Origin: Flavobacteriales bacterium
GTDB taxonomy: Bacteria > Bacteroidota > Bacteroidia > Flavobacteriales_D > Sanyastnellaceae
Assembly (NCBI GenBank): GCA_040261275.1
Contig: JBDQOI010000012.1
Coordinates: 6,450-70,449 of the forward strand
Length of the DNA stretch: 64,000 nt
Direction of reading: 5' to 3'
The notes below the pieces were generated by a model, which saw nothing but the letters and a program-made list of their open reading frames with translations, was not told the DNA's origin and did no database searches. Every line of letters begins with the position of its first letter. Position 1 is the stretch's first letter. Positions 34,765 through 51,377 of the stretch are shown piece after piece. Both the position numbers and the translations under genes were made by a program.

Positions 34765-36030
34765 TTGCTCCTTTACCGTTTCGTCCTTCTCCTGCTGCGC
34801 TTGGGGCTTCTCGTCGCAGGGTTGTTCGGGGTGCGCAAGGCGCGCAAAGCGATCCAAGGGCGCAGAGGTTGGTCAAAACGATGGGCATCCGCAGATGTCA
34901 AAGCCCGTCAGAACGGCCGCAAAGGGAGCTGGATCCACCTCCACTGCGCGTCTTTGGGTGAGTTTGAGCAAGGGGCGGAAGTCATGGCCGCATTGCGAAG
35001 ACACCAGCCTCAACGCCCCATTTTGCTCACGTTCTTCTCGCCCTCTGGTGTGGAGGGTGCATTTGCTCCCGAAGCCGACCACGTGGACTACCTGCCCTTC
35101 GATTCTGGCCCCGCCATGAGGCGGTTTGCATCCACAGTCGAAATTGGGGATTCCATCCTGGTGAAATATGAATTATGGCCGGGGCTCATCCAAGCCCTGC
35201 ACCGATCCGGAACCCGGGTTCACTTGGTTGCGGCTCGCTTCGATCATGGTAAGCACCCTTTGAATGCTTCTGGCTTTTTGGTGCGCTCCGCCATGCGCCA
35301 ATTGACCACCCTGCAAACCCAGGATATTGCTTCGCGGGATGTCCTTTCTGACTGGGGCTTCGATTCCCTGATGACCGGCGACCCCAGGGTCGATCGGGTT
35401 CAGCAGACCCGACGGATAGAACCGCCTGGCGAGGTAGCCACCGCGCTGACGGCCATGCAAGAATGGGCCAACGGGAGGCGGGTGATCGTGGTGGGCAGTG
35501 CTTGGCCACCAGAATGGGAATGTCTCCAAGCCATACTCGACGGACACCCGGAGTGGTGCGCATGGGTAGCGCCTCACGAAGTGGATGCTGCCCACGCCCG
35601 CCAATGGGGACGGACGGAGGGCACCACGACTTTGACAGCGCTGGAAAACCCCGAAATCGCAGCACCCGCTGGAAAGGTGTTGATCATGGATCGTATCGGC
35701 ATCCTCAAATTCGCCTACAGGCGGGGCCAGTTTGCCATCGTGGGCGGAGGATGGGGCAAGGGCGTTCACAATACGCTGGAGCCTGCCGCATTTGGACTGC
35801 CCGTTCTCTTTGGCCCAGCCATCGGCGGTTTCCGGGAAATCGATGCCCTGATGGAGGTGGGCGCCGCCCGGATGTGCGCAAACCGTGGCGAATTGACAGC
35901 GCATGCCCGACACTGGATGGAGGATGATGTGAAACTCCAGCATTCCGGTAACGCGGCTCGAACCTGGGTCGATGAGCAATCAGGCGCTGCTGAACGCATT
36001 GTGAAGGAGGTTCTCCGGCACATTCAATAG
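34765..36030 (+). CDS. waaA: 3-deoxy-D-manno-octulosonic acid (Kdo) transferase
   Basis: 421 aa; N-terminal TM, HCASLGEFEQG and GGSW..GVHNTLEPAAFG motifs typical of KdtA/WaaA. TTG start. Confidence 0.85.
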   Translation: MLLYRFVLLLLRLGLLVAGLFGVRKARKAIQGRRGWSKRWASADVKARQNGRKGSWIHLHCASLGEFEQGAEVMAALRRHQPQRPILLTFFSPSGVEGAFAPEADHVDYLPFDSGPAMRRFASTVEIGDSILVKYELWPGLIQALHRSGTRVHLVAARFDHGKHPLNASGFLVRSAMRQLTTLQTQDIASRDVLSDWGFDSLMTGDPRVDRVQQTRRIEPPGEVATALTAMQEWANGRRVIVVGSAWPPEWECLQAILDGHPEWCAWVAPHEVDAAHARQWGRTEGTTTLTALENPEIAAPAGKVLIMDRIGILKFAYRRGQFAIVGGGWGKGVHNTLEPAAFGLPVLFGPAIGGFREIDALMEVGAARMCANRGELTAHARHWMEDDVKLQHSGNAARTWVDEQSGAAERIVKEVLRHIQ

Positions 36031-36074: not shown

Positions 36075-36076
36075 TG

Positions 36077-36149
36077 AGCGAGAAACGAGACTCGAACTCG
36101 CGACCCCAACCTTGGCAAGGTTGTGCTCTACCAACTGAGCTATTCTCGC
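36077..36149 (-). tRNA. tRNA-Gly (anticodon GCC)
   Basis: The reverse complement GCGAGAATAGCTCAGTTGGTAGAGCACAACCTTGCCAAGGTTGGGGTCGCGAGTTCGAGTCTCGTTTCTCGCT folds as a cloverleaf: 7-bp acceptor stem, anticodon loop TTGCCAA, GTTCGAGTC T-arm. Confidence 0.92.
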
Positions 36150-36304
36150 TTGGGTCGGCGAATTTACACCAAAACTCGGTCCCGCCAATGCGAGCGAAAA
36201 CAAATCGACAAAACGTGCAACGATATAATAACACCCCTCGTTCTCATTTCACGTTGCATCTTGTAGGACCATTCCGTCAAACTGCCGCAATCCTCAACCA
36301 AACC

Positions 36305-39300
36305 ATGAGAACTGTATTTTTCTTGGCGTTCATCGCCGCTTTTACCCTCGACGGCTTCAGCCAAGTCAAATCAAACACCGCTCCGGCCGAGCGCAATTGT
36401 GCGGCCCACGAGATGCACGTCCAGATGATGGGACTGGATGCCGCCTATGCCAAACGGCACATGGACATGGAGCAACAAACCGCCGCGTTTGTGTCCGCAC
36501 GTCAAGAAGCCCGTGCGAACGGAGCACAGCAGCAACCGGTGGTCATCACCATACCCGTGGTATTCCATGTGATCTACGCCAACGAGACGCAGAACATTCC
36601 CGATTCGGAGCTCCTGGAGCAATTGCAAGTACTCAATGAAGATTTCCGACGCACCAACGCCGACCAGGACAACATCTGGCCGCAGGGAGCGGATACGGAA
36701 ATCGAGTTCTGCATGGCTACGCGGGACCCCAACGGAGCACCGAGCAGCGGCATCCTCCGCGTACCCACTACCGTGTCGAGCTTCGGTTCCAACGACGCCA
36801 TGAAGTTCACGGCCCAAGGAGGTTCGGATGCCTGGCCAGCGAGCGAATATTTGAATTACTGGGTGTGCAACCTCGGCGGTGGTCTCTTGGGATATGCTCA
36901 ATTTCCGGGAGGTCCCGCGGCAACGGACGGAGTGGTTTGCGGATACCCTTATGTCGGGTTGAACGGTCCCGGAGCCGGCGCCTACAACTTGGGCCGCACG
37001 GGAACGCACGAGGTCGGTCACTGGCTCAATCTCCGCCACATCTGGGGCGATGGCCCCTGTGGCTCGGACGACTTCGTGGCCGACACCCCTGAGTCGGACG
37101 GCGCCAACTACGGCTGTGCCCTCGGCCACATCAGCTGCTCCACGGAAGACATGGTCCAGAACTACATGGACTACTCCGATGACGGGTGCATGAACATCTT
37201 CACCCAAGGACAAGGCGATCGCATGCAAGCCGTCCTGGCTCCCGGAGGGGCACGCGCGAGCATTGCCACTTCCAACGGTTGCCTGCCTGCCGTCCCCGAC
37301 TTTGATCTCGACGCCGCCATCATTGCGGTCAATGAGCCCAGTGGCTTCTCATGCTCGACGGAAGTCACGCCTTCCATCACCCTCTTCAACTACGGAGGAA
37401 CAGTGCTGACTTCAGCCACCATTACCTACGACATCGACGGCGCCGGAGCCCAGACCTTTGCCTGGACAGGCTCCCTGGAGTTTGGCCAGAGTGAGGACAT
37501 CACTCTACCCGCCCAGACGCCCGGCGATGGCAGCCACGTCTTCAATGTGTCCGTTTCCGCTCCTAACGGAGGCGTTGACGAGAACAGTGCCAATGATTCC
37601 GGTAGCAGCGACTTTGCATTGGATTCCCAAGGCGTAGACGTCACCATGACCCTCACCTTGGACAATTACCCGGGTGAAACCACATGGGAGCTGGCGGATG
37701 CAGCTGGAACGGTGGTCTTTTCTGGTGGACCTTACGCCGGTTCAGGCGTGGTCGTGGAGACCGGTTGTGTGGCAGAAGGCTGCTACACCTTAACCGTTTA
37801 CGACAGCTTTGGCGACGGCATGTGCTGTGCCTACGGAACAGGAGGTTATGAATTCGGCATCGGTGGATTGGTGCTGGCCTCGGGAGGCGAATTCGGCTCC
37901 AGTGAATCCACAGACGTCTGTGTAGGCGATGTCGTACTCGGCTGCACCGACGCCACCGCTTGCAACTACAATCCAGACGCCATCGCGGACGACGGTACTT
38001 GTGATTTCAGCTGCCTCGGCTGCACCGACTCCACCTTCTGCAACTTCAACCCCGACGCTACTGTAGACGATGGAAGCTGCGCGAACGAGGACATCTGTGG
38101 TGTGTGTGCCGGAGACGGATCCAGCTGCTCGGGTTGCACCGACAGCACTGCCTGCAACTACGACGACGAAGCCACCTTTGACGATGGCACTTGCTATTTC
38201 GCTCCTCCTGGAGGCGTATGCGACTGCTTCACCGATCTCTCCATTACCGAGAGTCTTGCCGGTGGTGTAGCTGGCACGCCTGTCACCTTTGAAGGCAGCG
38301 GTGAGGTCACTGGTTTCGATATCACCCTCGACTACACGAGCAGTGCCGGCAGCTGGGCAGCAGATATGCTTGTGGTCATCACATCACCCAACGGAGATTG
38401 CATCGAGTTTGGAGGGTTCACAAGCACCGTCACTGCAGGATGCACAGATTTGGGAGGTTACACCCTTTGGCCCGCAGGTTGGGCAGTGGATGCCAGTGGC
38501 GTTTACACCGCTTCCATCGACTTGAGTGCTTCCGGATTGACCGGAGACGGGACTTGGAGTGTACAACTTTGGAATGGCTATGCCGCTGGTGGAACGGTGA
38601 CATATATCGCGGACATCACCGTTCAGGATGTCTGCATCGGCGGTGTGATCAATGGCTGCACCGACCCGACGGCATGCAACTATGATGCGGACGCCACGGC
38701 CGACGACGGCTCCTGTGCGGACTTTGACCTCTGCGGCATCTGCGCCGGAGACAACAGTACCTGCGGGGGCTGCACGGACAGCACAGCCTGCAACTTCGAT
38801 CCGGCCGTAATCATTGATGACGGCTCCTGCGCAGACTTCGACCTTTGCGGCGTGTGTGCTGGAGACAACAGCACCTGCGGTGGTTGCACGGACAGTACCG
38901 CCTGCAACTTCGATCCGGCCGCGATTGTGGATGACGGATCCTGTATTCTGGATGGCCTGCCCTTCTCTTTAAGCATCCTGCTGGACAATTTTCCCGGTGA
39001 AACGACTTGGAGCCTCACCGATAGCTTAGGTGCATCGATTGCCTCCGGCGGTCCATATGCCGGAGCGGGAACCACTGTTGTGGAGAACTTCTGCGCACCG
39101 GAAGGGTGCTACACCTTGACCATGTTCGACAGCTTCGGCGACGGCATTTGCTGCTCCTATGGAATCGGCAGCTACGAACTGACGGCGGACGGAGGTGTCG
39201 TCGCTTCCGGAGGTGAATACGGGGCTCAAGAGGCCACCTCCTTCTGTGTGGGCGGAGACTTCGGCTGCACGGATGCAACGGCCTGCAACTATGATCCGGA

Positions 39301-41155
39301 TGCCGTTTTGGACAATGGCGCATGCGACTTCAGCTGCTATGGCTGCACGGACCCCGAGAGCTGCAACTACGACGCGGATGCGACCATTGATGATGGCAGC
39401 TGTGTCGGCGCAGGTGTGGGTGTGGTGGTCTCCATCACGACGGACAGCTGGCCCGAAGAGATTACTTGGAACATCACGGATGGTACAGGTGCAATCGTGG
39501 CCTCCGGCGGACCCTATGCGAGTCCGGCGACCACCTACAACGAAACCGTGTGCTTGGCCGAGGGGTGCTTCACCTTCACCATTGCGGACAGCTTTGGGGA
39601 TGGCATCTTCAGCCCGGGAGGTTACAGCCTGACCATTGACGGTGTGGTCATTGCGTCCGGAGGTGCATATGGCACTGGGGAATCTGTCGATTTCTGCACG
39701 GACAACCTCAATTTCGGCTGTACCGACCCACTGGCCTGCAACTACGATCCGGATGCCGGTATTGACAACGGCACGTGCGACTTCAGCTGCAATGGATGCA
39801 CCCTGCCGGCCGCTTGCAACTACAACCCGGATGCCACGGTGGACGATGGCTCTTGCCTTTTCGATGACGACTGCGGCGTCTGCGGTGGAGACAACAGCAC
39901 ATGTGGTGGCTGCACCGACCCCGCTGCCTGCAACTTCGACCCGGATGCCACCATCGACGATGGAAGCTGCATCATCGGTGGCATCGACTTCACCATGACG
40001 GTGGTGTTGGACAATTACCCCGCCGAATTCTCATGGGTCCTGGTCGACGCCAGCGGAGCTACGGTGGCTTCGGAAGGATATGGTGGACTGACCGGAACCG
40101 TGACGACAACCTACTGTCTGCCGGACGGTTGCTACGACCTGACGGTCAATGACAGTTTCGGAGATGGTATCTGCTGCTCCTTCGGTAATGGAAGCTACAC
40201 CCTGACCGTAGCGGGTTCCGTTGTGGCGACGGGAGGTGATTTCGGCAGCACGGAAACCACCAGTTTCTGCACGGGCGACCTGCCCGGTTGTACCGATCCG
40301 GATGCTTGCAACTACAATTCTGCGGCCACGGTAGACGACGGGTCTTGTACCTACCCGCCGGCGGACAACTTGGATTGTGACGGCAACTGCCTCAACGATG
40401 CGGATGGCGATGGCATTTGCGACGAGGACGAAGTGGCAGAGAGCAGCTTTGTCCAACTCGGATATGATGTGCTGGCACAGAACACCGTGGACGGAGCGAC
40501 GACCTATCGCGTTTGGGCCGAATTCTCCGACCCTACGGAGCAGCTGGTCGCCGTGTACGGATTTGACTCCGTACCCTTGACCATCAATACCACAACGGCA
40601 TTCTACCAGAACCCGCTCGGTGGAGCCTTGGCCGTTGACTTCAATCCAGCGTTGTTGCCCGTTGACTCCCTGCTCGCTTTCGACAGCTGGCTGACCGTCG
40701 GTGGACAGGACAACTCGGCCGATGTCAATTCCATCGGACTCGACTTCGGGCCGTTTGAGGGTTCAGGTGGCCCGGTCATCGCGGACAATGTCAATGGCGG
40801 TTCGGTCTTCATTTACCCTGACCTCGAGCCCGCTGCCTTCCCGGATGCGCAAGGCCATGTGCTGATTGCCCAGTTGACCACCGATGGAGAAGTCAGCCTG
40901 ACGGTCAATCTTCAATCCCGCACTGGCGATGGACAAAACCCGCAAATCCTTCAGCAAAGCCTCACCTTCCAAGAGGTCTACGAGTGCTTTGGCGACTTCA
41001 ACAACGACGGCCTGATCGGCATTGGTGACCTGCTGATGTTGCTCGGAGACTTCGGCTGTCCTTCCGATTGCAGCTATGACATGAATGGTGACGGTGGTGT
41101 GACCACCTCGGACATGCTCGTCATGCTCGCTGTATTCGGAACGGACTGCCCATGA
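36305..41155 (+). CDS. Giant secreted M43 (cytophagalysin/pappalysin-type) zinc metalloprotease with repeat modules and a dockerin-like C-terminus
   Basis: 1616 aa from MRTVFFLAFIAAFTLDGFSQ (signal peptide). Zinc site HEVGHWLNLRH at 37007-37039, then ADTP and NYMDYS motifs. Then four ~92-aa DSFGDG modules, 12 GCTDxxACN[YF] minimotifs, a P-domain-like module, a TSP3-like DCDGNCLNDADGDGICDEDE (40373-40432) and two dockerin-like repeats. The track ORF from 36065 reads through tRNA-Gly and was trimmed. Confidence 0.88.
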   Translation: MRTVFFLAFIAAFTLDGFSQVKSNTAPAERNCAAHEMHVQMMGLDAAYAKRHMDMEQQTAAFVSARQEARANGAQQQPVVITIPVVFHVIYANETQNIPDSELLEQLQVLNEDFRRTNADQDNIWPQGADTEIEFCMATRDPNGAPSSGILRVPTTVSSFGSNDAMKFTAQGGSDAWPASEYLNYWVCNLGGGLLGYAQFPGGPAATDGVVCGYPYVGLNGPGAGAYNLGRTGTHEVGHWLNLRHIWGDGPCGSDDFVADTPESDGANYGCALGHISCSTEDMVQNYMDYSDDGCMNIFTQGQGDRMQAVLAPGGARASIATSNGCLPAVPDFDLDAAIIAVNEPSGFSCSTEVTPSITLFNYGGTVLTSATITYDIDGAGAQTFAWTGSLEFGQSEDITLPAQTPGDGSHVFNVSVSAPNGGVDENSANDSGSSDFALDSQGVDVTMTLTLDNYPGETTWELADAAGTVVFSGGPYAGSGVVVETGCVAEGCYTLTVYDSFGDGMCCAYGTGGYEFGIGGLVLASGGEFGSSESTDVCVGDVVLGCTDATACNYNPDAIADDGTCDFSCLGCTDSTFCNFNPDATVDDGSCANEDICGVCAGDGSSCSGCTDSTACNYDDEATFDDGTCYFAPPGGVCDCFTDLSITESLAGGVAGTPVTFEGSGEVTGFDITLDYTSSAGSWAADMLVVITSPNGDCIEFGGFTSTVTAGCTDLGGYTLWPAGWAVDASGVYTASIDLSASGLTGDGTWSVQLWNGYAAGGTVTYIADITVQDVCIGGVINGCTDPTACNYDADATADDGSCADFDLCGICAGDNSTCGGCTDSTACNFDPAVIIDDGSCADFDLCGVCAGDNSTCGGCTDSTACNFDPAAIVDDGSCILDGLPFSLSILLDNFPGETTWSLTDSLGASIASGGPYAGAGTTVVENFCAPEGCYTLTMFDSFGDGICCSYGIGSYELTADGGVVASGGEYGAQEATSFCVGGDFGCTDATACNYDPDAVLDNGACDFSCYGCTDPESCNYDADATIDDGSCVGAGVGVVVSITTDSWPEEITWNITDGTGAIVASGGPYASPATTYNETVCLAEGCFTFTIADSFGDGIFSPGGYSLTIDGVVIASGGAYGTGESVDFCTDNLNFGCTDPLACNYDPDAGIDNGTCDFSCNGCTLPAACNYNPDATVDDGSCLFDDDCGVCGGDNSTCGGCTDPAACNFDPDATIDDGSCIIGGIDFTMTVVLDNYPAEFSWVLVDASGATVASEGYGGLTGTVTTTYCLPDGCYDLTVNDSFGDGICCSFGNGSYTLTVAGSVVATGGDFGSTETTSFCTGDLPGCTDPDACNYNSAATVDDGSCTYPPADNLDCDGNCLNDADGDGICDEDEVAESSFVQLGYDVLAQNTVDGATTYRVWAEFSDPTEQLVAVYGFDSVPLTINTTTAFYQNPLGGALAVDFNPALLPVDSLLAFDSWLTVGGQDNSADVNSIGLDFGPFEGSGGPVIADNVNGGSVFIYPDLEPAAFPDAQGHVLIAQLTTDGEVSLTVNLQSRTGDGQNPQILQQSLTFQEVYECFGDFNNDGLIGIGDLLMLLGDFGCPSDCSYDMNGDGGVTTSDMLVMLAVFGTDCP
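37652..37927 (+). repeat. DSFGDG-CC module, copy 1
   Basis: LTLDNYPGETTWELADAAGTVVFSGGPYAGSG..GCYTLTVYDSFGDGMCCAYGTGGYEF...ASGGEFGSSESTDVCVG. Confidence 0.8.
37940..38194 (+). repeat. GCTDxxACN[YF] minimotif array 1 (3 copies + CGVCAGD linker)
   Basis: GCTDATACNYNPDAIADDGTC, GCTDSTFCNFNPDATVDDGSC, NEDICGVCAGDGSSCSGC, GCTDSTACNYDDEATFDDGTC. Confidence 0.8.
38219..38634 (+). other. P-domain-like ~135-aa module (copy in the M43 protease)
   Basis: CDCFTDLSI...FDITLDYTSSAGSWAADMLVVITSPNGDC...LGGYTLWPAGW..SGVYTASIDLSASGLTGDGTWSVQLWNGY...DVC. Paralogous to 42697-43116. Confidence 0.6.
38654..38944 (+). repeat. GCTDxxACN[YF] minimotif array 2 (3 copies + 2 linkers)
   Basis: GCTDPTACNYDADATADDGSC, then twice ADFDLCG[IV]CAGDNSTCGGCTDSTACNFDPA..DDGSC. 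Confidence 0.8.
38702..38929 (+). repeat. Near-perfect 2 x 114-nt tandem duplication inside the M43 gene
   Basis: 38702-38815 and 38816-38929 both encode DDGSCADFDLCG(I/V)CAGDNSTCGGCTDSTACNFDPA(V/A)I(I/V). The nucleotide differences are mostly synonymous. Confidence 0.85.
38975..39253 (+). repeat. DSFGDG-CC module, copy 2
   Basis: ILLDNFPGETTWSLTDSLGASIASGGPYAGAG..GCYTLTMFDSFGDGICCSYGIGSYEL...ASGGEYGAQEATSFCVG. Confidence 0.8.
39263..39403 (+). repeat. GCTDxxACN[YF] minimotif array 3 (2 copies)
   Basis: GCTDATACNYDPDAVLDNGAC and GCTDPESCNYDADATIDDGSC. Confidence 0.8.
39428..39697 (+). repeat. DSFGDG module, copy 3 (lacks the CC pair)
   Basis: VSITTDSWPEEITWNITDGTGAIVASGGPYASP..GCFTFTIADSFGDGIFSPGGYSL...ASGGAYGTGESVDFC. 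Confidence 0.75.
39716..39970 (+). repeat. GCTDxxACN[YF] minimotif array 4 (3 copies + linker)
   Basis: GCTDPLACNYDPDAGIDNGTC, GCTLPAACNYNPDATVDDGSC, DDDCGVCGGDNSTCGGC, GCTDPAACNFDPDATIDDGSC. Confidence 0.8.
40001..40276 (+). repeat. DSFGDG-CC module, copy 4
   Basis: VVLDNYPAEFSWVLVDASGATVASEGYGGLTG..GCYDLTVNDSFGDGICCSFGNGSYTL...ATGGDFGSTETTSFCTG. Confidence 0.8.
40286..40348 (+). repeat. GCTDxxACN[YF] minimotif, single copy 12
   Basis: GCTDPDACNYNSAATVDDGSC. Confidence 0.8.
40985..41152 (+). other. C-terminal double dockerin-like EF-hand repeat, cysteine-bracketed (M43 protease)
   Basis: CFGDFNNDGLIGIGDLLMLLGDFGC-PSD-CSYDMNGDGGVTTSDMLVMLAVFGTDCP-stop. Confidence 0.65.
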
Positions 41156-43332
41156 TGCGTGCATCCATCCTATTCTTCTTTGCCCTCCTGATCGGAACTT
41201 CGGTTTCCGGTCAGGTGGCACAGGGGGGACATCCTTGGAAGTGGGGGCAATCCGGATTTGACTCGGAATACCCGCTTTTGACCACCGCGGAACTCGACCT
41301 CGAAGCCCTCGCTGCAGAAGATGCGGTCACCGACCAGTACAAAGAGGCGCCTTGGCGCTTTGGTGTAGAGCGGGAGGTCGACCTGAGGCTCACTGATTCG
41401 GGATCCTGGACCCAGGAAAAGGACCGTTGGATTTGGCGCCTTGGAATCCACTGTCCGGGCGCTACAGGTATCGCCATCAGGCTGAGCACTTTCGATGTCC
41501 CCAGCGGGGCCGCGCTGTATGTCTGGAATGCGGACCGCACCCATTTCCTCGGGGGATTCACCGAGGCCAATGAAAAGGAATGGGGAAGCCTGCCCTTGGG
41601 GCTGCTCGATGCTGAAGAAGTGGTCTTGGAATACCAGGAGCCCCTCGATGTCCATGGTGAGGGTGACCTCCGCATCGACCAGGTGGTCCATGGATATCGC
41701 AGCCTGCTGCGTCACCCCGAGAATGCAGCAGAGGAAGCGAGCATGGGGCCCTTTGGAAGCTCAGGGGCTTGCAACATCAATGTGAATTGTCCTTCGGGGA
41801 ACGACTGGCAGGTCGCCAAGCGTTCCGTCGCCCTCATCACCAATGGCGGATACGCGGTTTGCAGCGGGGCTTTGGTCAACAACACGGCAGAAGATGGCAC
41901 CCCGTACTTCCTGACGGCCAACCACTGCCTCGGCAATCCCAACACCTGGGTGTATTACTTCAACCACGAGAGCAGCACCTGTTCGGGTTCCACGGGTCCG
42001 ACCAACCAGAGCGTTTCGGGCGGCACCTTGTTGGTCAACAGCGGCAGCAGCGATGTGGCCCTCATCCAATTGAGCACAACACCCCCTGCCAGCTACAACG
42101 TAGAGTACGCGGGTTGGGATGCGAGTGGATCCCCCCCCTCTTCGGCTGTCGGAATTCACCACCCCAGCGGCGACGTGAAGAAGATCTGCTTCGAAAACAA
42201 TTCGCCCTACTTCTCCACCGCGGGCAGTGCCGCGGTATGGTGGATCGACCAATGGGAATCTGGTGTCACCGAACCCGGGTCCTCCGGCTCGCCCCTCTTC
42301 GACCAGAACCAGCGCATCATTGGTCAATTGTACGGTGGCGCAGCGGCGTGCAGCGGAAGTTCCAACAATGGCGCTTACGATTACTACGGCCGCATGAACG
42401 TGAGCTGGGGCGTTGGGGTATCCGGTTACCTCGATCCGTTGAATACCAACCAGCTCACCATTGACAGCTATCCTACGAACTCGAACTCTACGGCGGGCTG
42501 CACCCTTCCCTCGGCCTGCAATTACGACCCGGAGGCGCTGGAAGATGATGGCTCCTGCCAGATTGACGATGCATGCGGCGTCTGTGGTGGCGACGGAACA
42601 AGTTGTACGGGATGCACCGACAACACGGCCTGCAACTTCGACCCAGAGGCCACGATCGACGACGAAGGATGCCTCTACCCGCCGGCAGGCGAGCCTTGCG
42701 ACTGCGACGCCGAAGGGGCCCTCGACGCGACATTGTCGGCCAATGCCGCTTCGTCCATCTTTTCCTTCGATGCGGCAGGCGAACCCACCTCCTTGGACAT
42801 CACACTAAACTGGACCAACACGGGCGGAGGGGCCAATTGGCCTGCCGATCTCGCGATGGCCATCACCTCGCCGGAAGGAGCCTGTGCCTCGCTGGGTGGC
42901 TACAATTCTTCGCCCGCTGGGTGCTCCAGCTTGGGCAACTACACGCTTTGGCCCGCCTCATGGCAGGTCTCCACCAGCGGGACCTACACGGCCACCGTTG
43001 ACCTCTCCAGCAGTGGCTTGTCGGGCAACGGAACCTGGTCCGTCTACCTTTTCAACGGCTACGGCAGCTCTTCCGGCGCTCAATTCAACGCCTCATGGGT
43101 CGTCTCCGGCTTGTGCAACGGCTCGCCCGATGGCGGAGGTGGCGGTGGCGGCCCGAACGATTGCCCTCCCGATCTGGACGGGGACGGCACTGTGACCGTC
43201 TCGGATGCCTTGATTTTGCTCGGCGATTTCGGTTGCCTGTCCAATTGCACCGCGGATCTGAATGGCGACGACTTCGTCAACACATCGGACATGCTCATCT
43301 TCCTCGGCGCCTTTGGCGAACCTTGCGAATGA
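41152..43332 (+). CDS. Secreted S1-family trypsin-like serine protease (lysyl-endopeptidase-like) with the same C-terminal module stack
   Basis: 726 aa; signal peptide MMRASILFFFALLIGTSVSGQ and an N-terminal pro-region. Catalytic triad context: TANHC (His codon 41923-41925), DVALIQL, GSSGSPLF (Ser codon 42283-42285). Then 2 minimotifs, a P-domain-like module, a Gly7 linker and two dockerin-like repeats. Its ATG overlaps the M43 stop. Confidence 0.85.
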   Translation: MMRASILFFFALLIGTSVSGQVAQGGHPWKWGQSGFDSEYPLLTTAELDLEALAAEDAVTDQYKEAPWRFGVEREVDLRLTDSGSWTQEKDRWIWRLGIHCPGATGIAIRLSTFDVPSGAALYVWNADRTHFLGGFTEANEKEWGSLPLGLLDAEEVVLEYQEPLDVHGEGDLRIDQVVHGYRSLLRHPENAAEEASMGPFGSSGACNINVNCPSGNDWQVAKRSVALITNGGYAVCSGALVNNTAEDGTPYFLTANHCLGNPNTWVYYFNHESSTCSGSTGPTNQSVSGGTLLVNSGSSDVALIQLSTTPPASYNVEYAGWDASGSPPSSAVGIHHPSGDVKKICFENNSPYFSTAGSAAVWWIDQWESGVTEPGSSGSPLFDQNQRIIGQLYGGAAACSGSSNNGAYDYYGRMNVSWGVGVSGYLDPLNTNQLTIDSYPTNSNSTAGCTLPSACNYDPEALEDDGSCQIDDACGVCGGDGTSCTGCTDNTACNFDPEATIDDEGCLYPPAGEPCDCDAEGALDATLSANAASSIFSFDAAGEPTSLDITLNWTNTGGGANWPADLAMAITSPEGACASLGGYNSSPAGCSSLGNYTLWPASWQVSTSGTYTATVDLSSSGLSGNGTWSVYLFNGYGSSSGAQFNASWVVSGLCNGSPDGGGGGGGPNDCPPDLDGDGTVTVSDALILLGDFGCLSNCTADLNGDDFVNTSDMLIFLGAFGEPCE
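42496..42672 (+). repeat. GCTDxxACN[YF] minimotif array in the S1 protease (2 copies + linker)
   Basis: GCTLPSACNYDPEALEDDGSC, QIDDACGVCGGDGTSCTGC, GCTDNTACNFDPEATIDDEGC. Confidence 0.8.
42697..43116 (+). other. P-domain-like ~135-aa module (copy in the S1 protease)
   Basis: CDCDAEGALD...LDITLNWTNTGGGANWPADLAMAITSPEGAC...LGNYTLWPASW..SGTYTATVDLSSSGLSGNGTWSVYLFNGY...GLC. Paralogous to 38219-38634. Confidence 0.6.
43162..43329 (+). other. C-terminal double dockerin-like EF-hand repeat, cysteine-bracketed (S1 protease)
   Basis: CPPDLDGDGTVTVSDALILLGDFGC-LSN-CTADLNGDDFVNTSDMLIFLGAFGEPCE-stop. Confidence 0.65.
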
Positions 43333-43358
43333 GCTGACCAACACAACTCAACCCCACC

Positions 43359-43387
43359 AAAAAGCCCCGCAAATGCGGGGCTTTTCT
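43359..43387. terminator. Rho-independent terminator after the protease pair
   Basis: AAAAA-GCCCCGC-aaat-GCGGGGC-TTTTCT. Confidence 0.85.
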
Positions 43388-43419
43388 GTACCCCTAACGG
43401 GTCACTTCTCGATCTCTTT

Positions 43420-43445
43420 CCGTCAGGCGGTTGGTGGGTTAGTCT
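43420..43445. repeat. 26-nt direct repeat, copy 1 (spans the stop codon of the gene at 43439-44095)
   Basis: CCGTCAGGCGGTTGGTGGGTTAGTCT, identical to 44151-44176. Confidence 0.9.
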
Positions 43446-44095
43446 TCCCAGCGCCAGAAGGCTTGGGAATAAGCCGTTACAGCACTACTTCCTGCTCGCG
43501 ATGAAGGATTGCTGCACAATGGATACCAACCATCTACAACTTTCGAATCACAGCAAGTTGCGAATGCATCCTGAATAGTACTATGGCAATAGCTATACTC
43601 CACCTTGGGCCGCTCTTGGGTGGCGCAAAAACAACCCAACACAATGTTTCTGTTATAACTGCTGTAGGCGATCTCAGTGCCTTGAGATGGTGAATCGAAC
43701 ACGCTGTGGGAAGTGGAACTGCCTAGACCAAAGTTCTCGTTGAAGTCTGGAAGCATCCTCCAGACCAATTTATTAGGCGGGAAGTCCTCGTAAACGACTC
43801 CCACATCGGCGTCAGTTAAAACTCTCCACGATCCTGGCAATGATGAGCATTGCTCAATGCAGTTCCAAAGATTGTGGTTTCCTACGTCAAGCACCATGTG
43901 TGTGCTGTCATCATTGACATATATGCCGTCAGGAGTAAAGCTCTGGCCATAGAACGTGAGCAATTCAATAACATCAGCAGCACCAATAAAGCCATCGGGC
44001 TGCGCATCTGGATTGTATGGGAGTTGGAAGCCGTCGACCTGCGCGGTGACGTTGAACGCGGCGAGGATCACCAGGCATGCAAGTAGGTTCTTCAT
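43439..44095 (-). CDS. Small secreted Cys-rich protein with an N-terminal dockerin-like loop
   Basis: 218 aa from MKNLLACLVILAAFNVTAQ (signal peptide), then YNPDAQPDGFIGAADVIELLTFYG (43946-44017). Cys-rich C-terminal half; lower GC than the flanks. No family recognised. Confidence 0.6.
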   Translation of the reverse strand: MKNLLACLVILAAFNVTAQVDGFQLPYNPDAQPDGFIGAADVIELLTFYGQSFTPDGIYVNDDSTHMVLDVGNHNLWNCIEQCSSLPGSWRVLTDADVGVVYEDFPPNKLVWRMLPDFNENFGLGSSTSHSVFDSPSQGTEIAYSSYNRNIVLGCFCATQERPKVEYSYCHSTIQDAFATCCDSKVVDGWYPLCSNPSSRAGSSAVTAYSQAFWRWED

Positions 44096-44150
44096 GGTGC
44101 TACAAGTTCGGAAGAGCACTGCAGAATGCCATGCCGCTGGCGAAGTGGGG

Positions 44151-44176
44151 CCGTCAGGCGGTTGGTGGGTTAGTCT
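44151..44176. repeat. 26-nt direct repeat, copy 2 (spans the stop codon of the pentapeptide-repeat gene)
   Basis: CCGTCAGGCGGTTGGTGGGTTAGTCT, identical to 43420-43445. Confidence 0.9.
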
Positions 44177-44919
44177 GGCACTATGCGGTATCGGTTCGGC
44201 TCTGAACAGTCTGGATCAGGTTCGCAGATGTAGCCTGATGGGAGTTGCGATGGGCAGCCGATCTGGAGACAGGTCATAGTGGCACCAATGAGTTTGGCAT
44301 CAGCGAAGTTGGCACCAGGGAGGTTGGCAAATTTGGGGTTGACATTTTCGAGGTTGAAACCAGTGAGGTCCGCATCAAAGAGCTCGGCACCAGAGAGTTG
44401 GGAACCAGAGAGGTCGGCATGAGAGAGGTTGGCACCAGAGAGGTCGGCTTCAGAGAGTTCGGCACGAGTGAGGCTGGCACCAGAGAGGTTGGCACCAGTG
44501 AGGTTGGCATCAATGAGGAAGGCATCACTGAGTAAGGCAGATCTGAGGTTGGCACCAGAGAGGTTGGCAAGAGTGAGGTTGGCACCATTGAGGTCGGCAC
44601 CATTGAGGTCGGCACCAGAAAGGTCGGCATCCCAGAGGTCGGCACCAGAGAGGCCGGCACCAGAGAGGTTGGCACCAGAGAGGTTGGCATGAGAGAGTTG
44701 GGCATCAGAGAGGTTGGCACGAGTGAGGTTGGCACCAGTGAGGTTGGTTCCGCGCAGATCTAAATCTGAGAGGTCTACATGACCTAAGTTTTCATTTGGC
44801 TTTAGCCCATAATCACGCCGGTTCTGAACTATCTGTTTCTGTTCTTCTTTTGAAATCATCCAAGCAATATCGTCAAAGTGGTGCCGGTGTCTTAAATCTT
44901 GCGACGTCGCTTGGACCAT
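44170..44919 (-). CDS. Pentapeptide-repeat protein
   Basis: About 35 consecutive A(D/N)LxG-type pentapeptides ([37 protein letters not shown]...), with a Cys-containing C-terminal tail. No signal peptide. ATG at 44919 preferred; alternatives are a TTG at 44991 and an ATG at 44859. Confidence 0.85.
44284..44780. repeat. 15-nt periodic DNA repeat underlying the pentapeptide repeats
   Basis: Units close to GAGGTTGGCACCAGA recur head-to-tail about 30 times. The region stays open in several frames on both strands (track ORFs 44245-44535, 44274-44735, 44429-44692). Confidence 0.85.
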
Positions 44920-45166
44920 CGCCGATGTCAGGCGTGTGTGGTTAGACCTGTTTTGAATAAATCCCCACGTTACGATCCATTCAACTGCCAAGCACTGCCA
45001 TACTTCTGCATATACGGCAGTGGAAGTTTGCAGTGTTCGCGGGCCTTGTAGGCCATCGACTGCCGTACTGCCACACTTTTGCAGGTAGCTGGAGAGAGAG
45101 CAGCAGAGGACGGGTGTGAATAACTATGTGCCATGCAGGAAGGCACACAGCAAACCCCAAACAACA

Positions 45167-45193
45167 CGAAAGCCCAGTAAATACTAGGCTTTC
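45167..45193 (-). terminator. Possible terminator hairpin downstream of tRNA-Leu
   Basis: GAAAGCC-13-nt loop-GGCTTTC, followed on the minus strand by GTGTTGTTTGGGGTTT. The T-tract is only moderate. Confidence 0.4.
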
Positions 45194-45197
45194 AGTG

Positions 45198-45283
45198 TAC
45201 CCGGAGCGGGACTTGAACCCGCACGACCCGTTTGGGTCAACAGAGTTTAAGTCTGTCGTGTCTACCAATTCCACCATCCGGGC
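45198..45283 (-). tRNA. tRNA-Leu (anticodon TAA), class II with a long variable arm
   Basis: The reverse complement GCCCGGATGGTGGAATTGGTAGACACGACAGACTTAAACTCTGTTGACCCAAACGGGTCGTGCGGGTTCAAGTCCCGCTCCGGGTA has anticodon loop CTTAAAC, a long extra arm and a GGTTCAAGTCC T-arm. Confidence 0.9.
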
Positions 45284-45324: not shown

Positions 45325-45804
45325 CTATTCCAAGTGATCGGAGACCCAGCACGTTCCCGACCAAACCAGCTCTGCAAAAATGCCGTTGGTCTCGTACTGC
45401 CTCGCGAGCGTGAGCCAGTTGCCCACGGAATCCTGCAGATAGACTTGCTGGTCATTCATATCGGGCTGTTTGGACACCGCCAAACGGAAGGACTGACCCG
45501 GATATTCGCCATCAGGCACCGTTACGTAGAGGTAAGGAAAGGTGAAATCTTCGGCGATGTAGAGGTCATATCCCAACGGCAGAATGCCGACGGTATCCGG
45601 ATCAAAATGAAGGACGGATGGACCCGTGAAAGGTGGATTGTAAGGCAGTCCATACACCGCCAAAACTGCGATGACATCTCCTGCACCGATGTTGCCGTCC
45701 CCGTTTGCATCGGGATTGAAGGCTTGCGCCTGGACTGCAGAGGCTAAAACCAAGGCCAATGTGACCCCAGCAGCGCGTAGACGAAGATGAGCTGTGCCCT
45801 TCAT
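45325..45804 (-). CDS. Small secreted protein with an N-terminal dockerin-like loop (paralogous tag to 43439-44095)
   Basis: 159 aa; signal peptide ending ASAVQAQA, then FNPDANGDGNIGAGDVIAVLAVYG (45649-45720). No family recognised for the rest. Confidence 0.6.
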   Translation of the reverse strand: MKGTAHLRLRAAGVTLALVLASAVQAQAFNPDANGDGNIGAGDVIAVLAVYGLPYNPPFTGPSVLHFDPDTVGILPLGYDLYIAEDFTFPYLYVTVPDGEYPGQSFRLAVSKQPDMNDQQVYLQDSVGNWLTLARQYETNGIFAELVWSGTCWVSDHLE

Positions 45805-45959: not shown

Positions 45960-47135
45960 ATGGTAAAGGATGCGCCCCTCCACATGGTGGACCTCAAGGG
46001 TCAGTATGCCCACATTCAGGAGCAGATTGACCATGCCGTCCTTGATGTCATCCGATCGGGCGCCTTCATTCAGGGGCCTGCGGTCAAGCATTTTGCCACT
46101 GACCTCGCCCATTGGATGGGTTCAACTCCGGATGAGCCGATTTATGTCATTCCCTGTGCCAATGGAACCGACGCCCTGCAGGCCGCCTTCATGGCGCTCG
46201 GCTTGGAACCCGGAGACGAGGTCATCACGCCGTCGTTCACTTACATCGCGACGGTGGAGGTCATCCAGCTGCTTCGGCTAAAGCCGGTCATGGTCGACGT
46301 GGATCCGCGCACTTTCAACATCGACACGGCGGCCGTGGAAGCGGCCATTACACCGCGCACCAAAGCCATCCTACCCGTCCACCTCTATGGACAGTGCGCC
46401 GATATGACCGCCATCTTGGACATCGCAGAAAGAAACGGATTATCCGTGGTGGAGGACACCGCACAAGCCATTGGCTCCGTGTGGAATCCAAATGGCGATT
46501 CGGCGGGGGGGGAAATGGCCGGCACCATGGGCAACATTGGTACGACGAGTTTTTTTCCGTCCAAGAATCTCGGTGGCTATGGAGACGGAGGGGCATGCTT
46601 TACCCGGGATGCGGCACTTGCGGAACGCTTGCGCATGATCTGCAACCACGGATCCAAGCAGCGCTATGAGCACGAGTTGATTGGCATGAACAGCCGGCTG
46701 GACAGCATACAGGCGGCCATCCTGGGGGTGAAGCTGCCGCATCTGAGCGGTTACAATGCCGCGCGGGTAGCTGCAGCGGACCGCTACGACGCCATGTTTG
46801 CCGACCATCCGCTGATTTCGACGCCCTTCCGCGACCCGCGTTCATCCCACGTTTTCCATCAATACACCCTGCAATTGGGTGCGGTGGGCGATGGGCCGGA
46901 AATGCGGGATGCCTTGGTTGCCCATTTGACCTCGGTGGGGGTTCCTTTCGGCATCTATTATCCAAAGCCAATTCACCGGCAAAAGGCTTTCATGGACTTC
47001 GATCAGTCCGCTGAAGGACTTGGCGTGACAGAGGATCTAACCCACGGGGTCTTCAGTTTGCCGTTGCTCACCGAACTTTCAATCGATTTGCAGACGCACA
47101 TCGCCGATGCCGTTCGCACGGGATTGAAGTCGTAA
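45960..47135 (+). CDS. DegT/DnrJ/EryC1/StrS-family PLP-dependent sugar aminotransferase (WbpE/WlbC-like)
   Basis: 391 aa from MVKDAPLHMVDLKGQY...; FFPSKNLGGYGDGG (PLP-lysine region). The longer track ORF from 45882 was trimmed. Confidence 0.85.
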   Translation: MVKDAPLHMVDLKGQYAHIQEQIDHAVLDVIRSGAFIQGPAVKHFATDLAHWMGSTPDEPIYVIPCANGTDALQAAFMALGLEPGDEVITPSFTYIATVEVIQLLRLKPVMVDVDPRTFNIDTAAVEAAITPRTKAILPVHLYGQCADMTAILDIAERNGLSVVEDTAQAIGSVWNPNGDSAGGEMAGTMGNIGTTSFFPSKNLGGYGDGGACFTRDAALAERLRMICNHGSKQRYEHELIGMNSRLDSIQAAILGVKLPHLSGYNAARVAAADRYDAMFADHPLISTPFRDPRSSHVFHQYTLQLGAVGDGPEMRDALVAHLTSVGVPFGIYYPKPIHRQKAFMDFDQSAEGLGVTEDLTHGVFSLPLLTELSIDLQTHIADAVRTGLKS

Positions 47136-47167
47136 TTTCGCGCGGGTACCCAAACACCCTTCCTGTC

Positions 47168-48478
47168 ATGAAAATCGCCGTTGTTGGAACCGGATATGTT
47201 GGTCTTGTGACCGGCACCTGTTTCGCCGAAACTGGAAATGACGTCATCTGCGTAGACATCGATGCGGCCAAGGTCGAGAAAATGCGCAACGGAGAGGTGC
47301 CCATTTACGAGCCCCATTTGGATGTGCTTTTCGAGCGCAACATCGCGGCTGGGCGACTGAGCTTCACCACCGACCTGGCCGAGGCCGTAGAGCCCGCCGA
47401 AGTGATTTTCCTCGCCCTTCCCACGCCTCCGGGTGAGGACGGCAGCGCCGACCTCAGCTACGTGCTGGGCGTGGCGGACCAGTTGGGAAAGATGATCACC
47501 GAATACAAGGTCATCGTGGACAAGAGCACGGTGCCGGTCGGGACGGCGGAGAAGGTGACGGCTGCGGTTGGGGCCAACGCCACCGTGGACTTTGACGTGG
47601 TGTCCAACCCGGAATTCCTGCGCGAGGGCTATGCGGTGGACGATTTCCTGAAGCCGGACCGCGTGGTGATCGGCGTGGGCAGCGACCGCGCCGAGGAGGT
47701 AATGACCCGCCTGTACAAGCCGTTCATTCGCCAAGGCAATCCGCTGATCGTCATGGACGAGCGCAGTGCGGAGCTCACCAAGTATGCGGCCAACAGCTTC
47801 CTCGCCACCAAGATCACGTTCATGAACGAGATCGCGAACTTCTGCGAGAAGGTCGGAGCGGACGTGGACAAGGTGCGCCGGGGCATGGGCACGGATACCC
47901 GGATCGGACCCCGCTTCCTCTTCCCGGGCATCGGATACGGCGGAAGCTGTTTCCCCAAGGACGTGCAGGCCTTGCACCGCAGCGGCCGCGAGGCAGACTT
48001 CGAATTCGAGATTCTCACCAGTGTGATGGACGTCAACGAACGCCAGAAGACGGTGCTCTTCGAGCCCCTCCTCAAGAAATTCAACGGCGACCTCAGTGGT
48101 GTGAAGATTGCGCTTTGGGGCCTCGCCTTCAAGCCGGAGACGGATGATATCCGCGAGGCTCCGGCGCTGTATATGATCGAGAAGCTACTCGATGCCGGTG
48201 CTTCCATCACCGCGTTCGACCCCGAAGCCATGGAGAATGTCCGCCAACGTGTGGGCGACCGCATTGCTTTCGCCGATGGCCAATACGCGGCCTTGGATGG
48301 AGCCGATGCCCTTCTCATCTGCACCGAGTGGCAGGTCTTCCGGACGCCCGACTTCGGACGCATGAAGGAGGCGATGAACAACCCCTTCATTTTTGACGGC
48401 CGCAACCTTTACGACGTGGATGACATGGCCGAAAAGGGCTGGGATTACGTTTCCATCGGTCGCCGCCCCTCCAGCTGA
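47168..48478 (+). CDS. ugd: UDP-glucose 6-dehydrogenase
   Basis: [25 protein letters not shown] (catalytic Cys); 436 aa. Confidence 0.92.
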
Positions 48479-48483
48479 ACTCC

Positions 48484-50062: not shown

Positions 50063-50066
<4 letters not shown>
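49464..50066 (+). CDS. Left-handed beta-helix N-acetyltransferase, WbpD/WlbB-like
   Basis: Hexapeptide repeats. [23 protein letters not shown]...[11 protein letters not shown]...[13 protein letters not shown] closely parallels WlbB/WbpD as I recall them. Confidence 0.78.
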
Positions 50067-51376
<1,310 letters not shown>

Positions 51377-51377
51377 T

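Follow-up and report, generated by a model that had tools for sequence, protein, structure and literature searches.

Introduction

What holds a secreted protease in place when it lacks the C-terminal domain (CTD) of a type IX secretion system (T9SS) and ends in a small dockerin-like tail instead? This question is raised by a stretch of 64,000 nucleotides from a Flavobacteriales bacterium (family Sanyastnellaceae; GenBank assembly GCA_040261275.1, contig JBDQOI010000012.1, positions 6,450 to 70,449 of the forward strand). The whole stretch is called the window, and coordinates given without a locus label are counted from its first letter. Two genes on its plus strand are the subject of this work, one encoding an M43 metalloprotease of 1616 amino acids (36305-41155) and the other an S1 (Trypsin_2) serine protease of 726 amino acids (41152-43332).

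An earlier note on this DNA had read these genes and their neighbours as a candidate uncharacterised, tRNA-bounded and protease-centred system of dockerin-tagged secreted proteins. The interpretation is partly supported. The dockerin tails, the lack of a CTD and the behaviour of the tail as a C-terminal address stand, whereas the uncharacterised, tRNA-bounded and protease-centred character does not. We give a probability of about 0.5 to the reading that the tail is a portable C-terminal docking or anchoring address on this two-protease operon, with a β-sandwich named domain X as the most plausible class of receptor. The evidence for the tail, its exchange with the T9SS CTD and its distribution is presented first, followed by domain X, the rival explanations and the surroundings of the operon.

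The C-terminal tails are GC-type dockerins

The M43 protease ends in CFGDFNNDGLIGIGDLLMLLGDFGCPSDCSYDMNGDGGVTTSDMLVMLAVFGTDCP (40985-41152, plus strand) and the S1 protease, after a Gly-rich linker, ends in CPPDLDGDGTVTVSDALILLGDFGCLSNCTADLNGDDFVNTSDMLIFLGAFGEPCE (43162-43329, plus strand). Each tail is 56 residues long, closes its protein, and consists of two D-x-[DN]-x-D-...-D loops with helices, bracketed by four cysteines. The first repeat follows the pattern C-x2-D-x-[ND]-x-D-G-x-[VI]-x3-D-x-L-x2-L-x2-F-G-C, and the pattern continues after this first FGC with x3-C-x2-D-x-N-G-D-x-x-V-x3-D-M-L-x2-L-x2-F-G-x2-C-x, so that FGC follows repeat 1 and FGxxC closes repeat 2. Loop positions 1, 3, 5 and 12 are acidic or Asn in both repeats of both tails, leaving the calcium-ligand positions intact. 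AlphaFold2 (AF2) predicts a helix after each loop (in M43 at model residues 224-232 and 252-261), and the helix faces are strongly conserved across S1 orthologues of 72-88% overall identity. Because the cysteine pattern is invariant and the ligand residues are present, calcium loading and a disulfide clasp are both probable.

By homology, both protease tails are dockerins of a catalogued GC-type family. The NCBI model NF041540, named ‘GC-type dockerin domain-anchored protein’, has a cutoff of 29 bits and scores 30.4 bits on the full S1 protein and 36.5 bits on its isolated tail. The M43 tail matches the model at E<=0.01 when scanned alone, with no match in the full-length scan, and all 26 diverse tails tested, that of M43 included, match at E<=0.01. 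Pfam Dockerin_1 (PF00404) remains below its gathering threshold of 22.9 on both proteins (15.9 bits for M43, 14.1 bits for S1); 13 of 32 relatives match it at E<=0.001, the best at 3e-17. Among PDB sequences, the S1 tail finds the dockerin 2y3n_B (E=5e-4), and the best match of the M43 tail is the Clostridium perfringens NagH dockerin 2jnk/2ozn (E=1e-4). A profile of the 26 tails matches 2y3n_B over both repeats (E=7e-8), followed by the further dockerins 2ccl_B, 1ohz_B and 6kg9 and then by calmodulin EF-hands. The identification of the tails as dockerins in the earlier note is thus borne out by the PDB matches and by the score of S1 above the NF041540 cutoff. Its description of the domain as uncharacterised does not hold, since this type of C-terminal dockerin is already known and has been modelled and named by NCBI. 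The term ‘GC-type dockerin’ appears in no paper of the literature searched, and the searches turned up nothing on this tagged-protease system.

The tails share with the NF041540 family the C-terminal position and the G-C motifs (FGC, FGxxC). What the family offers is a curated HMM (hidden Markov model) and a name, and the Flavobacteriales tails differ by their four cysteines in a fixed C...FGC-x3-C...FG-x2-C pattern. With the type I dockerins of clostridial cellulosomes (PF00404/PF00963) they share two F-hand repeats of ~22 residues, an Asp at loop position 12 and the helix that follows. They differ in that both window tails fall below the Pfam threshold and are apparently disulfide-bracketed. 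Clostridial cellulosomes also differ in their carriers, which are mainly carbohydrate-active enzymes, while proteases and many other enzyme classes carry the tag here, and in their host, since the present one is an aerobic marine Gram-negative with a T9SS; scans of selected window proteins detected no cohesin by sequence. Non-cellulosomal dockerin proteins, peptidases included, and dockerins of rumen Bacteroidetes have already been reported in a passage of PMC6487960 that cites Peer et al. 2009.

Exchange of the dockerin with the T9SS CTD

In the S1 orthologues whose identity over residues 1-441 is 56-61% (most of loci L039-L064), the protein ends in a T9SS type-A CTD and has no dockerin. On the CTD-type S1 orthologue that was scanned, in L040, the Pfam model PF18962 matches nearly full length at E=1.2e-4, and the same model matches neighbouring proteins on dockerin-type contigs, up to E=6.7e-12. 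Both tags were tallied with our own HMMs in 1.28 Mb of related loci together with the window. A C-terminal dockerin is found in 113 open reading frames (ORFs) and a C-terminal CTD in 60; none has both at one C-terminus. The two types of tag occur together on 16 contigs and in places adjoin, as in L025, where five dockerin and two CTD ORFs lie in 19 kb. In the flanks of the CTD-type S1 genes (~0.4 Mb), our own HMM scan found no dockerin ORF.

Scans with Pfam and NCBIfam gave no CTD match at the C-terminus of M43 or S1, in agreement with what the earlier note had said of the tagged proteases. The note had also pointed to a CTD elsewhere in the window, on a secreted protein of the PAD_porph family (10129-11937, plus strand; PAD_porph E=9e-35). 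A type-A CTD is probable there at residues ~528-602, where our own iterated profile gives E=8.7e-12, while PF18962 aligns near full length at a sub-threshold E=0.2 (12.4 bits) and TIGR04183 does not match. The iterated profile had drifted: within M43 and its orthologues it also picked up, weakly (E~1e-4), the DSFGDG modules described below, and for this reason only C-terminal CTD hits with E<1e-5 were counted.

Since orthologues swap dockerin and CTD, and the two tags are never both C-terminal, the dockerin is, as far as these sequences tell, an alternative occupant of the C-terminal address slot, in some lineages alongside T9SS, and not itself a CTD. Because relatives carry a T9SS CTD at the same position, the tag probably serves as an address by which the enzyme is docked or anchored. 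The likeness to the type A CTD (TIGR04183/PF18962) lies in the position and in the families concerned, as S1 orthologues and domain-X proteins carry either tag. The difference lies in the fold, the CTD being a β-sandwich and the dockerin a helical EF-hand pair, which are unrelated. One metagenomic protein of 360 residues, P0342 (L005 255-1337, plus strand), carries both tags: after a signal peptide come four GC-type dockerins in tandem, and a type A CTD of T9SS follows them. It is a T9SS-anchored dockerin array, the reverse of the usual arrangement.

Distribution of the tag and its carriers

The S1 protease has 6983 homologues at E<=1e-5, and the tails were counted in the best 120 of these. 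The dockerin tail stands at the end of 117, with the last Cys often the final or penultimate residue. The three exceptions are two truncated proteins (P0082, P0114) and one that is frame-shifted in the second repeat (P0110). Those among the best 120 that carry a name are all from uncultured Flavobacteriales. A protein search by tail profile returned almost only contig-end fragments of <100 residues, and the inventory was therefore taken from a search of 1.84 billion cluster representatives, in which the profile finds 24,215 at E<=1e-3 and 1,656 at E<=1e-10. Of the 67 top hits that show one match only, 62 have the tail <=3 residues from the C-terminus, and in three of the five exceptions a Fib_succ_major-type sequence follows it. 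Likewise, 113 of the 127 dockerin-bearing ORFs in the 1.28 Mb of related loci have the dockerin at the extreme C-terminus. The top hits with multiple repeats, which have no taxonomic label, are of a ‘WGxCP’ repeat type that we take to be typical of Planctomycetota, a phylum that lacks T9SS.

The carriers comprise M43, M12B, S8 and S1 proteases as well as GH16, FG-GAP/ASPIC, sortilin-like, plastocyanin-like and VCPO-like proteins. A third tagged enzyme is encoded in the window outside the interval first described, at 31381-33249 on the minus strand. This is an arylsulfotransferase-like secreted protein (its start codon is uncertain) with three minimotifs of the kind described below and a single Cys-bracketed dockerin-type repeat at the C-terminus (CPQDLDFDGMVGVSDILDVLSFFGLVCP), and it is conserved in the loci L001-L004. 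Its lone F-hand might need a second F-hand to pair with. Because the carriers span many enzyme classes and one of them lies outside the interval, the tag is general; it is neither protease-centred, as had been supposed, nor limited to the interval.

Module architecture of the two proteases

The M43 protease begins with a signal peptide and a pro/catalytic domain, the catalytic part of which (residues 174-312; 36824-37240, plus strand) matches Pfam PF05572 with 61.7 bits against a cutoff of 23 (E=9.7e-17) and shows the zinc motif HEVGHWLNLRH in translation. After these come a weak CARDB/DUF11-like domain, four DSFGDG modules interleaved with minimotif arrays, one P-like β-sandwich, a TSP3-like acidic stretch, domain X and the dockerin. 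In the S1 protease, Trypsin_2 (PF13365) scores 36.3 bits against a cutoff of 27.6 and the triad motifs TANHC, DVALI and GSSGSP are present in translation. The protease domain is followed by two minimotifs, the shared β-sandwich, the Gly-rich linker and the tail.

The minimotif is a unit of ~20 residues, C-T-D-x2-A-C-N-[YF]-[DN]-x3-A-x3-D-D-G-x-C, and seems to build very long stalks. A regular expression finds 13 copies in the two proteases, 11 in M43 and two in S1. The first array of M43 lies at 37943-38194 and the further arrays at 38657-38944, 39266-39403, 39719-39970 and 40289-40348 (all plus strand); the two copies of S1 lie together with a CGVCGGDG motif at residues 450-507 (42499-42672, plus strand). 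The DSFGDG modules of M43 are four copies of ~100 residues (…ETTW…GGPY…GCYTLT..DSFGDG…) recognised from the sequence at 37637-37939, 38957-39259, 39413-39715 and 39977-40285 on the plus strand; the module also occurs in CTD-type S1 orthologues, for example in L040. Neither Pfam nor NCBIfam has a model that matches these two repeats, nor one for domain X or for the β-sandwich common to the two proteases. In relatives the minimotif forms long arrays, reaching 152 copies in a 5840-residue product of L072 (758-18277, plus strand), which has a single domain X at its N-terminus and ends in a T9SS CTD.

The two proteases share more than the dockerin. Residues 395-700 of S1 align to residues 520-824 of M43 with 42% identity (BLASTP, E=1.6e-69), and this places the shared stack at the end of S1 and in the interior of M43. 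The earlier note had put one common stack at the end of both; this is right for S1, whereas in M43 the dockerin follows domain X instead. The β-sandwich within the stack (S1 residues 517-656, 42700-43119; M43 residues ~642-781, with approximate limits, 38228-38647; both plus strand) had been called P-domain-like. The AF2 model of the S1 tail region has a mean predicted local distance difference test score (pLDDT) of 84.5, >90 over the β-sandwich, and its top Foldseek matches are the C-terminal domain of Tk-SP (3afg), Kex2 2id4, furin P-domains and KP-43 (E=5e-5 to 1e-3). At the level of Pfam the name fails, as P_proprotein (PF01483) does not match the S1 β-sandwich even at E<=5. The fold evidence comes from the S1 copy, and the M43 copy is assigned by its BLASTP homology. 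The likeness to the P-domain or C-terminal jelly-roll of the subtilases Kex2, furin, Tk-SP and KP-43 consists in the fold and in the position after the protease domain. The differences are the missing Pfam match, the attachment to S1 and M43 proteases, and the presence of this β-sandwich on non-protease T9SS proteins as well, such as that of L031 13131-15596.

Two variants of the gene pair were seen. In L021 (9860-14386), L022 (9860-14500) and L023 (9887-14944), an S1 protease domain is fused, between both tRNAs, to an M43-type C-terminal half with its modules, domain X and M43-type dockerin, and there is no separate M43 catalytic domain. In L003 (4982-10001), M43 is read in two frames as a pair of overlapping ORFs; the catalytic domain is on the ORF of 932 residues, and domain X and the dockerin are on the ORF of 893 residues. 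This is probably a frameshift or an assembly error in an otherwise identical locus.

Domain X, a candidate receptor

Domain X is a β-sandwich that directly precedes the M43 dockerin (residues 1382-1555; 40448-40969, plus strand). The AF2 model of the last 267 residues of M43 (pLDDT 90, predicted template modelling score (pTM) 0.76) shows it at model residues 33-206, followed by the two dockerin helices. Its best Foldseek matches in the PDB are the cohesins 2vo8 (E=1.3e-4, probability 1.0), 2jh2_B/2jh2_C (6.7e-4) and 2o4e, and the cellulosomal cohesins 4fl4_B, 4wi0_A and 5m0y_A are found further down. The earlier note had seen no cohesin-like gene. This holds at the level of sequence, as no cohesin is detectable in Pfam and NCBIfam scans of selected window proteins; at the level of predicted fold, M43 itself contains a domain whose best matches are cohesins.

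The architectures in which domain X occurs are diverse. It is followed by a dockerin in M43 and in the small proteins P0260, P0261 and P0283, by a T9SS CTD in P0329, P0331 and P0337 (TIGR04183 is above cutoff for the two tested), or by nothing. A scan of metagenomes with the domain-X alignment gave 80 loci with 126 ORFs, of which 33 end in a dockerin, 23 in a CTD and 39 in neither, and 31 are truncated. A recurrent marine protein of 1704 residues has three copies of domain X, 11-14 minimotifs and a T9SS CTD. It was found in seven examples, one at L121 12376-17487 (plus strand) and the others in L119, L122, L133, L135, L141 and L146. On either side of these proteins lie more ORFs with domain X, several of which have a T9SS CTD as well, and the layout resembles a scaffoldin. 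Other proteins have four or at least five copies. In favour of a receptor, a dockerin-tagged ORF adjoins X-CTD ORFs in L068; its neighbour in L069 has an incomplete domain X, and in L067 the neighbouring ORF is truncated and has two copies of X. The notion that X-CTD scaffold-like genes generally neighbour dockerin genes is not supported, and a PEP-CTERM reading of P0300, a domain-X protein from Phycisphaerae, was not confirmed by NCBIfam.

Two known systems resemble this one. The non-cellulosomal cohesin-dockerin pairs of C. perfringens glycosidases (NagH 2jnk/2ozn; 2vo8, 2jh2, 2o4e) provide the best PDB match of the M43 tail and the best fold matches of domain X, the latter likeness being at the level of fold only. 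In both systems, a dockerin, a module of cohesin-like fold or the two together are found on secreted hydrolases, and for this reason complexes between enzymes would be possible without a scaffoldin. The present system differs in that domain X abuts its own dockerin and is a putative binder of dockerins. The second system is the X-module-dockerin dyad of type II and III cellulosomal proteins, in which a β-sandwich likewise stands N-terminal of a dockerin with almost no linker. Domain X differs from these X-modules by also occurring alone, in arrays and with T9SS CTDs, and its best fold matches are cohesins and not X-modules. The facts on domain X, as far as the models go, fit three readings: a cohesin-like receptor, a dockerin-stabilising X-module and a tip adhesin on minimotif stalks. 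Since it has no sequence similarity to cohesins, domain X as the partner of the dockerin stays a candidate.

Proposed mechanism and rival explanations

In the mechanism that we propose, a conserved and translationally coupled operon, M43 then S1, lying between conserved tRNAs in an uncultured marine Flavobacteriales lineage, would supply two Sec-exported, multi-module proteases whose last 56 residues form a calcium-binding F-hand pair in a disulfide bracket. The tail would be a portable C-terminal address module, neither a catalytic part nor a T9SS signal, occupying the slot that the CTD takes in orthologues. Most likely it keeps the enzyme on the cell envelope or within a complex by calcium-dependent docking between proteins. 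The most plausible class of receptor would be domain X, which is carried by large proteins in one to at least five copies, many of them T9SS-anchored. M43, with domain X and a dockerin, could then hold S1, with a dockerin only. M43 is the natural candidate for this role because it carries both modules, and S1 is dockerin-only and translationally coupled to it. The analysis shows the gene structure and synteny, the homology to dockerins, the place of the tail at the C-terminus, its wide range of carriers, the exchange of tails, the fold match and the architectures; calcium binding, the disulfides, docking, the partner and a location at the cell surface are inferred from these.

A serious alternative, which we place tentatively at somewhat under an even chance, is that domain X is no receptor. 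It would then be an X-module that stabilises the adjacent dockerin, as in the type II and III dyads, or a tip adhesin or carbohydrate-binding module of surface fibrils, and the partner of the dockerin, if any, would be found elsewhere. A number of facts count in this direction and against the receptor that we favour. A gap of 1-9 residues separates domain X from the dockerin in 52 of the 56 ORFs that have the two, and a stabilising X-module accounts for such a gap no less well than a trans-acting receptor does; the pTM of the two-domain model suggests a fixed arrangement. The similarity to cohesins is absent in sequence: 22 members of domain X have no Pfam hit at E<=5, the profile has none in the PDB at E<=10, and an hhalign comparison with three PDB-verified CipA cohesins gives a probability of 0.08%. 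The Foldseek TM scores are modest (0.46-0.51 normalised to the target), and adhesin β-sandwiches (MSCRAMM, AgI/II) and p53 core domains are interleaved among the lower-ranked matches. Very long minimotif stalks with a CTD at one end also bear domain X at the other, the distal N-terminus, as in the 5840-residue protein of L072, and no dockerin ORF is seen in the 10 kb to either side on the contigs that have X-CTD arrays (L119-L146). Two further points concern docking as a whole. Dockerins without cohesins are common, according to Peer et al. 2009 as cited in a passage of PMC6487960, and the exit of CTD-less dockerin proteins across the outer membrane of a Bacteroidota cell is not accounted for. 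Co-export of such proteins on CTD-bearing partners is conceivable; it finds no support here. For the receptor speak the three best fold matches, all cohesins, with more cohesins below them, and the linker-separated arrays of 3 to at least 5 copies, with a CTD on the complete 3-copy proteins, which resemble scaffoldins. Additionally, domain X occurs without any dockerin, and for that reason it is not merely an accessory of the dockerin.

It is rather unlikely that the tail is a calcium-binding structural or substrate-interaction module only, with no dedicated protein partner and with enzymes that are released free. Such a module could, for instance, stabilise the enzyme in seawater or form a calcium bridge to anionic algal polysaccharides or particles. 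The lack of a cohesin in the scans of window proteins and the wide occurrence of cohesin-less dockerin-like modules in the passage just cited would agree with it, as would the match of the tail profile to calmodulin-type EF-hands and the varied position of single-repeat variants, which are found at C-termini, at N-termini (in the small proteins sp1 and sp2 described below) and internally before Fib_succ_major domains. Nevertheless, neither the extreme C-terminal position in ~90% of carriers nor the alternation with the T9SS CTD in orthologues is expected of a generic stabiliser, and the strong conservation of the helix faces among S1 orthologues of 72-88% identity also speaks against it.

If docking by domain X is taken to its full extent, a T9SS-built display akin to cohesin and dockerin can be pictured, in which X-bearing, T9SS-anchored scaffolds on minimotif stalks would receive dockerin-tagged hydrolases, X-dockerin proteins would serve as adaptors, and tagged enzymes would possibly ride across the outer membrane. 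We regard this fuller arrangement as decidedly improbable.

We consider it very unlikely that the tail is an export or sorting signal, either a new class of C-terminal T9SS signal or a signal for some other outer-membrane route, possibly cleaved after transport. The strict C-terminal position, often ending at the last Cys, would suit such a signal, as would the replacement of the tail by a T9SS CTD in orthologues and the fact that Sec signal peptides are present on the tagged proteins and nothing else in them is recognisable as a signal for outer-membrane export. Set against this are the small helical EF-hand pair, where T9SS CTDs are β-sandwiches, the homology of the tail to docking modules, the internal copies before Fib_succ_major domains, the four copies in P0342 that lie N-terminal of its own T9SS CTD, and the unlabelled multi-repeat hits of the ‘WGxCP’ type, taken above as planctomycetal.

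Locus layout and conserved synteny

The protease genes are joined by an ATGA in which the TGA of M43 and the ATG of S1 overlap, as the earlier note had described. ARAGORN finds exactly two tRNAs in the window, both on the minus strand: tRNA-Gly(gcc) at 36076-36149, which is conserved to the left of M43 and does not bound an island, and tRNA-Leu(taa) at 45197-45283, with its 3' end facing S1. Both had been reported, each with a start 1 nucleotide off. A GC-rich hairpin followed by a T run 3' of S1 (43360-43386, plus strand), read from the sequence, is likely the operon terminator, and the segment around it (43355-43420) is kept in L001, L008 and L009 and partly in L007 and L011. Between S1 and tRNA-Leu lie sp1, a Cys-rich secreted protein of 218 residues (43439-44095, minus strand), and a pentapeptide-repeat ORF without a signal peptide (44170-44991, minus strand; Pfam Pentapeptide, E=1.5e-57). 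Just beyond tRNA-Leu lies sp2, a secreted protein of 159 residues (45325-45804, minus strand). Translation confirms the four genes between the tRNAs and sp2 beyond them, and Pfam also supports M43, S1 and the pentapeptide ORF. The observation behind the earlier note is thus partly confirmed, its genes and tRNAs being real and its tRNA-bounded system not.

The locus was compared with L001-L004, which contain close S1 homologues, and with 77 loci from species-representative genomes. The compared loci are metagenome-assembled genomes (MAGs) of uncultured Flavobacteriales or Crocinitomicaceae, save a few that are evidently mis-binned. A Flavobacteriales-type locus is present in bins named Nitrosopumilus sp. 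or Comamonadaceae (L007, L042, L049, L053, L068, L080), which is probably binning contamination in public MAGs. The order tRNA-Gly, M43, S1, tRNA-Leu, sp2 is kept in >16 MAGs with S1 72-88% identical. L001-L004 and 14 of 18 relatives scanned have tRNA-Gly upstream of M43. tRNA-Leu follows <=65 bp after the S1 stop in L002, L003, L006, L011, L012, L014, L016, L017, L019 and L024, and is equally close after the fused protease/M43-half gene of L021-L023.

The junction of S1 and tRNA-Leu is a site of insertion. The insertion measures 1.9 kb in the window (sp1 and the pentapeptide ORF), 2.6 kb in L008 and 3.7 kb in L001/L009, where the inserted genes encode LamG-minimotif-single-F-hand-Fib_succ_major proteins, and >10 kb in L004, with a tyrosine-recombinase-like gene and a DUF3987 gene. 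The site is the 3' end of the minus-strand tRNA-Leu, and a tRNA 3' end is the usual target of integrative elements. The integrative element of L004 (12510-19954) also encodes a 345-residue secreted pentapeptide-repeat protein with an sp1-like leader and an F-hand loop. In most relatives the sub-segment 43333-45196, and with it sp1 and the pentapeptide gene, is absent; it alone has the features of a tRNA-associated island, which the whole block 36076-45283 has not. The four genes, first taken as one unit, are thus an operon of two and the cargo of an insertion hot spot, and the sequence tRNA-M43-S1-tRNA is ordinary conserved synteny. It is extremely improbable that the interval from tRNA-Gly to tRNA-Leu is a discrete, possibly mobile four-gene protease-display system, for although two tRNAs flank the genes and tRNA-Leu is an integration site in L004 (integrase, DUF3987), the conserved gene order excludes the whole block as a mobile island, its GC content and composition are unremarkable, sp1 and the pentapeptide gene are missing from most relatives, and tagged proteins occur outside the interval and across the genomes.

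The insertion in the window is, by its sequence matches, a mosaic. The 5' end of sp1 and the region upstream are 84% identical to the start of the gene for the 345-residue protein of L004, and the pentapeptide ORF matches the repeat body and C-terminus of that protein, with the leader missing. The ORF probably derives from a secreted pentapeptide protein like that of L004, either as a remnant that lacks the leader or as a rearranged copy. A perfect 26-nucleotide direct repeat, CCGTCAGGCGGTTGGTGGGTTAGTCT, lies at 43420-43445 and 44151-44176; in both sp1 and the pentapeptide ORF it covers the last codon, the stop and the 19 nucleotides that follow. None of 82 other loci searched contains the repeat, which could be a cassette junction or a recombination scar.

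The two small proteins had been described as paralogues with one dockerin-like loop each at the mature N-terminus. The loop is canonical in sp2 (FNPDANGDGNIGAGDV; orthologue pattern AFNPDANxDGxxGAGDV) and degenerate in sp1, where a single F-hand loop (D-A-Q-P-D-G) follows the signal peptide. Their similarity is limited to the signal peptide and this N-terminal loop (48 residues, E=3e-8), and they are not paralogues over their full length. Pfam and NCBIfam give no family match for sp1, and the remainder of sp2, a C-terminal part of ~110 residues, has no family match either. Unlike sp1, sp2 is a conserved core gene; its orthologue lies directly beyond tRNA-Leu in 16 related loci, convergent with the protease operon. 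The protease block as a whole is flanked by a Kdo-transferase gene and a polysaccharide-biosynthesis cluster (45960-52460 and 34765-36030), an arrangement kept in L001 and L002. The members of the cluster, annotated through synteny with the Pfam-annotated L001 and L002, include a DegT-type aminotransferase, UDP-glucose/ManNAc dehydrogenases and epimerases.

Significance

Several aspects of this system appear to be undescribed in the literature searched. These are the scale on which uncultured marine Flavobacteriales use the tag, its exchange with the T9SS CTD at the level of orthologues, the fixed X-dockerin dyad, and the cohesin-like predicted fold of a module that is arrayed on T9SS-anchored proteins. 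Much of the breakdown of algal and particulate organic matter is the work of uncultured marine Flavobacteriales, and whether their hydrolases are tethered to the cell or diffuse away decides who benefits from the products. A dockerin tag on thousands of secreted Flavobacteriales enzymes, interchangeable with the T9SS anchor, points to a second way of positioning enzymes. It also bears on what non-cellulosomal dockerins bind, for which one operon offers a test pair, the dockerin of S1 and the X-dockerin of M43. Should domain X prove to be the receptor, the range of cohesin-dockerin assembly would come to include protease complexes and Gram-negative organisms with a T9SS.

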